Source: a phage | Length of the DNA: 417 nucleotides | Sequence record: MW984355.1 | Reading direction: 5' to 3' (one strand) | In this document: piece by piece, positions 1 through 417 of the stretch | Numbering within the stretch: the first letter of the stretch is position 1 | Layout: every line of letters starts with the position of its first letter | Position numbers and translations under genes: made by a program | The notes under the pieces: model-generated | What the model was told of the DNA's origin: nothing | Databases searched by the model: none | What the model saw: the letters and a program-made list of their open reading frames with translations, nothing else

Positions 1-42
1 TTTTCGCAATTTTCTTTAGTGGTACCTTTCTATTCTCACTCT
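1..42 (+). other. gIII: C-terminal part of the pIII signal peptide (...LVVPFYSHS); leader peptidase cleavage expected after codon 40-42 (Ser)
   Basis: Codons 19-42 read GTG GTA CCT TTC TAT TCT CAC TCT = VVPFYSHS, the known end of the pIII leader, with the silent changes that create a KpnI site in display vectors. Positions 1-15 read FSQFS instead of the expected LFAIP; see findings. Confidence 0.85.
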
Positions 43-417
43 TCTGATCCTGTTGCTTTGTCTTATTGGCTGGCTCGTGGTGGAGGTTCGGCCGAAACTG
101 TTGAAAGTTGTTTAGCAAAATCCCATACAGAAAATTCATTTACTAACGTCTGGAAAGACGACAAAACTTTAGATCGTTACGCTAACTATGAGGGCTGTCT
201 GTGGAATGCTACAGGCGTTGTAGTTTGTACTGGTGACGAAACTCAGTGTTACGGTACATGGGTTCCTATTGGGCTTGCTATCCCTGAAAATGAGGGTGGT
301 GGCTCTGAGGGTGGCGGTTCTGAGGGTGGCGGTTCTGAGGGTGGCGGTACTAAACCTCCTGAGTACGGTGATACACCTATTCCGGGCTATACTTATATCA
401 ACCTCTCGACGCTGCAC
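1..417 (+). CDS. gIII: Filamentous phage minor coat protein pIII (g3p), partial at both ends, with an N-terminal 12-mer display insert and GGGS spacer (recombinant fusion)
   Basis: Frame 1 is open across the whole window. Translation: FSQFSLVVPFYSHS | SDPVALSYWLAR | GGGS | AETVESCLAKSHTENSFTNVWKDDKTLDRYANYEGCLWNATGVVVCTGDETQCYGTWVPIGLAIPEN | EGGGSEGGGSEGGGSEGGGT | KPPEYGDTPIPGYTYIN... This matches the signal peptide end, N1 domain, glycine-rich linker and N2 start of pIII as I recall them. The four N1 cysteine codons (TGT at 109-111, 196-198, 226-228, 247-249) are at the expected positions. Not in the ORF track, probably because the frame has no stop inside the window. Confidence 0.93.
21..26. 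other. KpnI/Acc65I recognition site (GGTACC), engineered 5' library cloning site
   Basis: GGTACC at 21-26 inside the leader codons. Wild-type gene III has GTT GTT CCT here as I recall; M13KE-type vectors carry GTG GTA CCT. Confidence 0.85.
43..78 (+). other. Displayed random-library peptide insert, 12 codons, encoding SDPVALSYWLAR
   Basis: TCT GAT CCT GTT GCT TTG TCT TAT TGG CTG GCT CGT lies exactly between the leader end (..CACTCT) and the spacer GGTGGAGGTTCG. Every codon ends in T or G (NNK pattern), and the length is 36 nt. Confidence 0.88.
79..90 (+). other. Synthetic Gly-Gly-Gly-Ser spacer between the displayed peptide and mature pIII
   Basis: GGT GGA GGT TCG = GGGS immediately upstream of GCC GAA ACT (AET, the mature pIII N-terminus). 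The last codon overlaps the EagI site. Confidence 0.88.
89..94. other. EagI recognition site (CGGCCG), engineered 3' library cloning site
   Basis: CGGCCG at 89-94, spanning the spacer Ser codon and the Ala1 codon of mature pIII, as in M13KE-type vectors. Confidence 0.85.
91..291 (+). other. gIII: pIII N1 domain (mature residues 1-67; the TolA-interacting domain)
   Basis: AETVESCLAKSHTENSFTNVWKDDKTLDRYANYEGCLWNATGVVVCTGDETQCYGTWVPIGLAIPEN, with four Cys at the positions of the two N1 disulfides. Domain function is from established knowledge of g3p, not from the sequence. Confidence 0.9.
292..351 (+). repeat. gIII: Four tandem 15-bp units encoding the pIII glycine-rich linker between N1 and N2 (EGGGS EGGGS EGGGS EGGGT)
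   Basis: gagggtggtggctct (292-306), gagggtggcggttct (307-321), gagggtggcggttct (322-336), gagggtggcggtact (337-351). The two middle copies are identical; the outer ones differ at 2 and 1 positions. Confidence 0.95.
352..417 (+). other. gIII: N-terminal part of the pIII N2 domain (F-pilus binding), truncated by the window edge
   Basis: KPPEYGDTPIPGYTYIN matches the start of N2. The last 5 codons (LSTLH) do not match the expected PLDGT; see findings. Confidence 0.8.

Follow-up and report, generated by a model that had tools for sequence, protein, structure and literature searches.

The Ph.D. library of New England Biolabs (NEB) uses NNK codons. Its oligos are placed between the KpnI site and the EagI site of M13KE (PMC5405960, New England Biolabs), a vector that was built from M13mp19 by adding these two sites to gene III around the signal-peptide/mature junction (PMC5405960). 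The S1 Table of PMC5405960 lists the changes at WT 1611 (T>G, Val11), WT 1614 (T>A, Val12), WT 1632 (C>G, Ser18), and WT 1635 (T>C, Ala19) for M13KE, together with a change at WT 1663 (C>T, Pro29Ser) that was inherited from M13mp18. Oligos for insertion into M13KE have the form GTACCTTTCTATTCTCACTCT(XXX)nGGTGGAGGTTC, with a bottom strand that begins GGCCGAACCTCCACC (PMC4871350). An (NNK)7 library oligo for M13KE shares these flanks (bioRxiv 10.1101/2025.05.12.648809), and the GGGS spacer that follows the displayed peptide is named in PMC5405960.

Set beside these systems, the 417-nt stretch of DNA analyzed here, which we call the window and whose positions are counted from its first letter, is an ordinary laboratory phage-display construct of an already known kind and not a natural locus. 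With a probability that we put at roughly 97%, the window is one raw, untrimmed sense-strand sequencing read of a recombinant M13KE clone, for which a random dodecapeptide library of the Ph.D.-12 type is the most likely source, and the discrepancies at the two ends of the read are base-calling errors. The earlier note on this DNA had called it an engineered phage-display vector segment rather than a natural one, and this is supported by the five published vector positions, the oligo-identical flanks, and the all-NNK insert described below. The same note had proposed the M13KE / Ph.D.-12 architecture, of which every feature testable within the window is present: the sites, Pro29Ser, the flanks, and the 12-NNK insert with GGGS. 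The M13KE identity is drawn from the published oligos, the published mutation table, and an M13mp-like contig (L003), rather than from a direct M13KE alignment, and the M13KE markers lacZ-alpha and T5091 fall beyond the 417 bases.

Frame 1 is open across all 139 codons and reads FSQFSLVVPFYSHS-SDPVALSYWLAR-GGGS-AETVESCLAKSH..., the full translation being FSQFSLVVPFYSHS SDPVALSYWLAR GGGS AETVESCLAKSHTENSFTNVWKDDKTLDRYANYEGCLWNATGVVVCTGDETQCYGTWVPIGLAIPEN EGGGSEGGGSEGGGSEGGGT KPPEYGDTPIPGYTYIN LSTLH. Positions 1-42 of the + strand hold the 3′ portion of the sequence that encodes the gene III signal peptide, where ..(L)FAIPLVVPFYSHS is expected; it was placed by alignment to M13 and to L003, and the match is exact over 14-42. 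At the junction, ...LVVPFYSHS is followed by SDPVALSYWLAR, then GGGS, and then AETVESCLAKSH. Alignments to two M13 genomes show a single 48-nt insertion at window 43-90, and this gap separates the final codon of the signal peptide (window 40-42) from the first one of the mature protein (window 91-93). Residue 1 of PDB 1g3p, which begins AETVES, aligns to window codon 31; the insertion therefore lies exactly at the signal-peptidase junction. The alignments and the start residue of the structure thus agree with the earlier placement of a 36-nt insert plus GGGS spacer exactly at the signal-peptide/mature junction. The companion expectation of a 36-nt unaligned block at 43-78 held in part, in that 43-78 is without a natural counterpart, but relative to empty M13KE the block would be about 48 nt, comprising insert and spacer.

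The sites that bracket this insertion are those of the vector. GGTACC, the KpnI/Acc65I site, occurs once in the window, at 21-26, where natural Ff phages read GTTGTTCC; it is created by two silent changes, GTT>GTG (WT 1611, window 21) and GTT>GTA (WT 1614, window 24). CGGCCG, the EagI site, also occurs once, at 89-94, and is made up of the spacer TCG and a silent GCT>GCC change (WT 1635, window 93) in Ala1 of mature pIII, a codon that is GCT in natural phages. The claim that KpnI at 21-26 and EagI at 89-94 bracket the insert is therefore borne out, each site being single in the window. A scan for other common cloning sites across the window returned none. The positions WT 1611, 1614, 1632, 1635, and 1663 correspond to window 21, 24, 42, 93, and 121, which carry G, A, T, C, and T, respectively, against T, T, C, T, and C in the wild type. 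All five listed gene III positions thus lie in the window and depart from wild type, and four of the five show the listed M13KE base. The fifth, window 42, carries T, the base given by the published insert oligo, versus G in empty M13KE, as this position is part of the cassette. The occurrence of five flank substitutions at exactly the published M13KE positions is far beyond chance.

The T at window 121 (+ strand) converts CCC to TCC, giving Pro29Ser of the precursor, which is Ser11 of mature pIII, and marks the M13mp18/19 > M13KE lineage. This position is C in natural M13, f1, and fd and is T also in the M13mp-like L003. The TCC codon is found, independently, in M13PR as well, a primer whose design was based on M13KE gene III (PMC3038132). 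L003 is JPUP01000080.1, 1-3249, which is filed as 'SAR11 cluster bacterium PRT-SC02 contig_430' in the GTDB species-representative set (one genome per species). A lacZ-alpha fragment lies at the start of this contig, which further has an 8-T tract at 2409 that equals the 1565T deletion, and gene III from 2433; it carries T at WT 1663, 2224, 2225, and 2229, which are M13mp markers, and it has the natural leader and is without the M13KE sites. From the lacZ-alpha fragment, the 1565T deletion, and the M13mp markers, it follows that L003 is M13mp18/19 vector DNA. The window is 100% identical to this contig over 94-401.

The constant parts of the cassette can be read equally directly. The 5′ constant flank of the library or insert oligo, GTACCTTTCTATTCTCACTCT, lies at 22-42 (+ strand), ends in TCT (Ser18), and is identical to the published M13KE oligos. 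On the other side of the insert, the GGGS spacer GGT GGA GGT TCG (GGTGGAGGTTCG) at 79-90 (+ strand) is the constant portion on the 3′ side of the insert oligo and corresponds to GGTGGAGGTTC/GGCCG in the PMC4871350 oligos. Taken as the pair GTACCTTTCTATTCTCACTCT ... GGTGGAGGTTCGGCC, the flanks at window 22-42 and 79-93 are base-for-base equal to the oligos of PMC4871350 and bioRxiv 10.1101/2025.05.12.648809, and flanks equal to those of the window are found in the primers of PMC3038132 as well.

We compared the window with natural phages. One alternative is that it belongs to a filamentous phage of the Ff type, or to a prophage, that occurs in nature and has a naturally acquired insertion in gene III. 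Megablast against 50,697 phage records gave 33 matches, all of them Ff (M13, f1, fd, and recent Ff isolates), at 97-99% identity over window 88-411 only; a more sensitive blastn search also aligns 3-42, as a separate segment, and gives no match for the sequence in between. The 97-99% identity of the backbone to gene III of natural M13, f1, and fd is what speaks for a natural origin. Such an origin would require five point changes that coincide exactly with the published engineered positions, and two of these changes would have to create the unique 6-cutter sites that flank the insertion; flanks identical to synthetic oligos and an all-NNK insert would be needed in addition. None of these features is present in the 33 natural records, and the complete E. 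coli genomes gave no match to the window. The insert and the engineered sites were found in 0 of the 33 natural Ff records, in a phage collection (50,697 records) that is without an M13KE record. The signal peptide of the window is not joined directly to AETVES, nor are the wild-type bases present at the five positions, as they would be in natural gene III. A natural-phage origin is therefore effectively refuted, and we regard it as vanishingly improbable. A search of the window against PLSDB plasmids also returned no match.

The displayed peptide is the variable part of the construct. Window 43-78 (+ strand) translates as the displayed random 12-mer SDPVALSYWLAR, encoded by TCT GAT CCT GTT GCT TTG TCT TAT TGG CTG GCT CGT, and is absent from Ff phages. 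The insert is 36 nt long, in frame, and without a stop, and the third base is G or T in 12 of its 12 codons, so that all are NNK codons. If each third base had a 50% chance of being G or T, 12/12 would have a probability of 0.0002; with the third-base composition of the rest of the gene (63% G/T), the value is 0.004. This all-NNK pattern is the signature of an NNK-randomized oligo, and a length of 12 codons corresponds to the Ph.D.-12 format. Within these third positions, T occurs in 9 of 12 and G in 3 of 12. The peptide has an aromatic SYW core; aromatic-rich motifs are common among plastic-binding, target-unrelated peptides. A search of about 8 million full-text papers found no match to SDPVALSYWLAR, and a full-text search for a long junction string gave none either. 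These 12 residues are the sole unique information in the window.

The same vector could also have received its insert in another way, either as a member of a user-made 12-mer M13KE library or as a designed peptide cloned between Acc65I and EagI, without being from the commercial Ph.D.-12 library. Nothing in the window tells such a custom construct from the commercial library, and published protocols place chosen peptides and custom libraries in M13KE with exactly these flanks (PMC4871350, PMC3038132, bioRxiv 10.1101/2025.05.12.648809). The use of NNK in 12 of 12 codons argues against a single designed peptide. Designed inserts have been codon-optimized for E. coli (PMC4871350). TCT, which the insert contains twice, CCT, and TTG are not codons that such optimization would select. 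Taken together, we consider a source other than the commercial library unlikely, although a custom NNK 12-mer library is a fully credible one, and favor a clone of the Ph.D.-12 type.

Downstream of the spacer, the window continues into mature pIII. The N1 domain, which comprises mature residues 1-67 and binds TolA, extends over 91-291 (+ strand), as assigned from Pfam Phage_Coat_A and PDB 1g3p chain A. The Pfam match (PF05357, Phage_Coat_A) has an E value of 8.9e-33 and a score of 112.3 bits against a cut-off of 20.8, and in the printed alignment to 1g3p chain A, 104 of 104 aligned residues (1-104) are identical. The natural glycine-rich linker G1, E(GGGSE)3GGGT, follows at 292-351 (+ strand) and is identical to that of M13. 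It is encoded by a 15-nt tandem repeat, which TRF reports at 291-348 with a period of 15 and 3.9 copies. The start of the F-pilus-binding N2 domain (KPPEYGDTPIPGYTYIN) lies at 352-401 (+ strand) and is identical to both M13 and PDB 1g3p. Minus-strand open reading frames at 63-164 and 169-417 were rejected as mechanical, being antisense to fully explained coding sequence. The reading frame in 169-417 encodes 82 amino acids from a GTG start, lies opposite the glycine linker, and is a by-product of the GGT/GGC-rich sense strand; there is no support for it as a gene. An Rfam search of both strands of the window at E ≤ 1 gave no match.

The two ends of the window depart from this otherwise regular picture. 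Within window 1-13, there is an A>T change at position 2 and, within 10-13, one extra base and a C>T change, by which the frame is shifted relative to the start codon. At the other end, 402-417 (+ strand) has the appearance of a degraded read end: one C is lost after 401, the frame is shifted, and CTGCAC stands in place of the expected GCACTT at 412-417. These six discrepancies all fall in the outer 16 bases, with 0 in the 388 internal bases, and window 14-401 is identical to a clone that we rebuilt by introducing insert, spacer, and the four published changes into the L003 M13mp backbone. The near-identity that had been expected over 1-42 and 79-417 is accordingly exact over 14-42 and 79-401 and breaks down through errors in 1-13 and 402-417, which the earlier note had not mentioned.

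Phage particles require gene III both for their release and for infectivity. Because each cluster of discrepancies frameshifts this essential gene and the 388 internal bases are perfect, we infer that the end discrepancies are base-calling errors of a single untrimmed Sanger-type read and not mutations. The differences are present in the sequence as given, and taken at face value they would be real mutations of a clone that is defective or has an altered pIII. A +1 frameshift in the signal peptide would, however, abolish pIII, and the other one, located at codon 134, would cost the protein both N2 and its C-terminal domain. Moreover, six discrepancies in the outer 16 bases versus none in 388 internal bases is the pattern of read-end error. 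We therefore judge real mutation to be very improbable and retain the reading as base-calling errors.

The window also contains sites for two commercial sequencing primers. The -96 gIII sequencing primer, as quoted in PMC5405960, has an exact single match at 175-194 on the - strand. The oligo GTATGGGATTTTGCTAAACAAC likewise has an exact single match, at 107-128 on the - strand, and spans the vector-specific T121; we take this oligo to be the NEB -28 gIII sequencing primer. Both the -28 and the -96 gIII primer sites are intact. The window extends well beyond the -96 site and was therefore not made with that primer; we would speculate that the read more likely started from a primer site beyond the window or derives from an amplicon that was sequenced.

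We also considered that the read might represent vector or phage contamination in a genome or metagenome data set instead of a deliberately sequenced clone. M13-vector DNA does occur in public assemblies, as exemplified by L003 under the name of a SAR11 single-cell genome. The exact Ph.D. junction pattern, with a gap of 21-36 nt, gave 0 matches in IMG/VR, GTDB genomes, and JGI metagenomes, which counts against such an origin; the KpnI-modified leader alone gave 0 matches in IMG/VR, and the exact 139-aa translation is absent from a 15-billion-protein collection. All that these junction negatives establish is that those collections are not the source of the window. With a 44-nt pattern taken from the conserved beginning of mature gene III, in which either the natural or the vector base was allowed, there were 0 exact matches in IMG/VR and in JGI metagenome contigs, and the gene III pattern common to the natural and vector forms had one match in GTDB genomes, which is L003. 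Natural gene III is thus nearly absent from IMG/VR and JGI, and the absence of the junction there is therefore weak evidence when taken alone. Ff phage DNA as a whole seems to be essentially absent from the IMG/VR and JGI metagenome collections. The form of the window bears on the question as well: it covers just the region that is sequenced to read a displayed peptide, and its ends carry Sanger-like errors, whereas an assembled consensus is normally clean. Contamination of a data set is, on balance, improbable, and a deliberately sequenced clone is the more probable reading of the window.

It is likewise improbable that the read comes from a non-laboratory data set, environmental or clinical, where it would document a commercial display phage as a circulating contaminant, or that SDPVALSYWLAR is an unpublished target-specific ligand. 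Neither reading would concern new biology of the locus. The practical value of the analysis is as a flag, in that the window should be excluded from natural-genome analyses and treated as vector or synthetic-construct material. L003 is itself cloning-vector contamination of a public marine single-cell genome assembly, and its recognition has some value for data hygiene.

The way in which the construct was made and would work can be proposed from these features and from established pIII biology. A synthetic KpnI(Acc65I)-EagI cassette, ...TCT-(NNK)12-GGT GGA GGT TCG, would have replaced the signal-peptide/mature pIII junction. The pre-protein would be exported via the Sec pathway, and signal peptidase would be expected to cleave after ...YSHS, leaving SDPVALSYWLAR as the free N-terminus of pIII, set apart from N1 by GGGS. 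The peptide should be carried by every pIII copy at the virion tip, given that M13KE is a phage vector rather than a phagemid. With N1 (TolA binding) and N2 (F-pilus binding) intact, the phage would be predicted to stay infective; functional N1 and N2 would in turn allow panning against a target, growth of the phage in F+ E. coli, and its identification from the sequence of exactly this region.

Comparison with known display systems and their parents places the window within one lineage. The fUSE5 / fd-tet type 3 vectors (Smith lab) share the principle of N-terminal pIII display from a phage vector, and they differ in having an fd backbone, SfiI (GGCCNNNNNGGCC) cloning sites, and ADGA...GAAGA flanks. 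A vector of the fUSE5 / fd-tet type was rejected as the source, as the window has no SfiI site (GGCCNNNNNGGCC) and its flanks are those of M13KE. Wild-type M13, f1, and fd (PDB 1g3p, 2g3p) share N1, the glycine linker, and the start of N2 with the window at 97-99% identity on the DNA level, but they have no insert, no engineered sites, and Pro at mature residue 11, where the window has Ser; the 1g3p crystal construct carries Ser11, like the window. The parent vectors M13mp18/M13mp19, represented here by L003, are 100% identical over window 94-401, including the T at WT 1663, and differ in having the natural leader (GTT GTT, TCC GCT) and in lacking both the insert and the KpnI and EagI sites of gene III. 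With the M13KE/Ph.D. system, the window differs in nothing within 14-401, the read errors being confined to the outer 13 and 16 bases. It shares with that system the KpnI and EagI sites, which arise from the same four silent changes, as well as the inherited Pro29Ser, identical oligo flanks, 12 x NNK plus GGGS fused to Ala1 of mature pIII, and intact -28 and -96 gIII primer sites.
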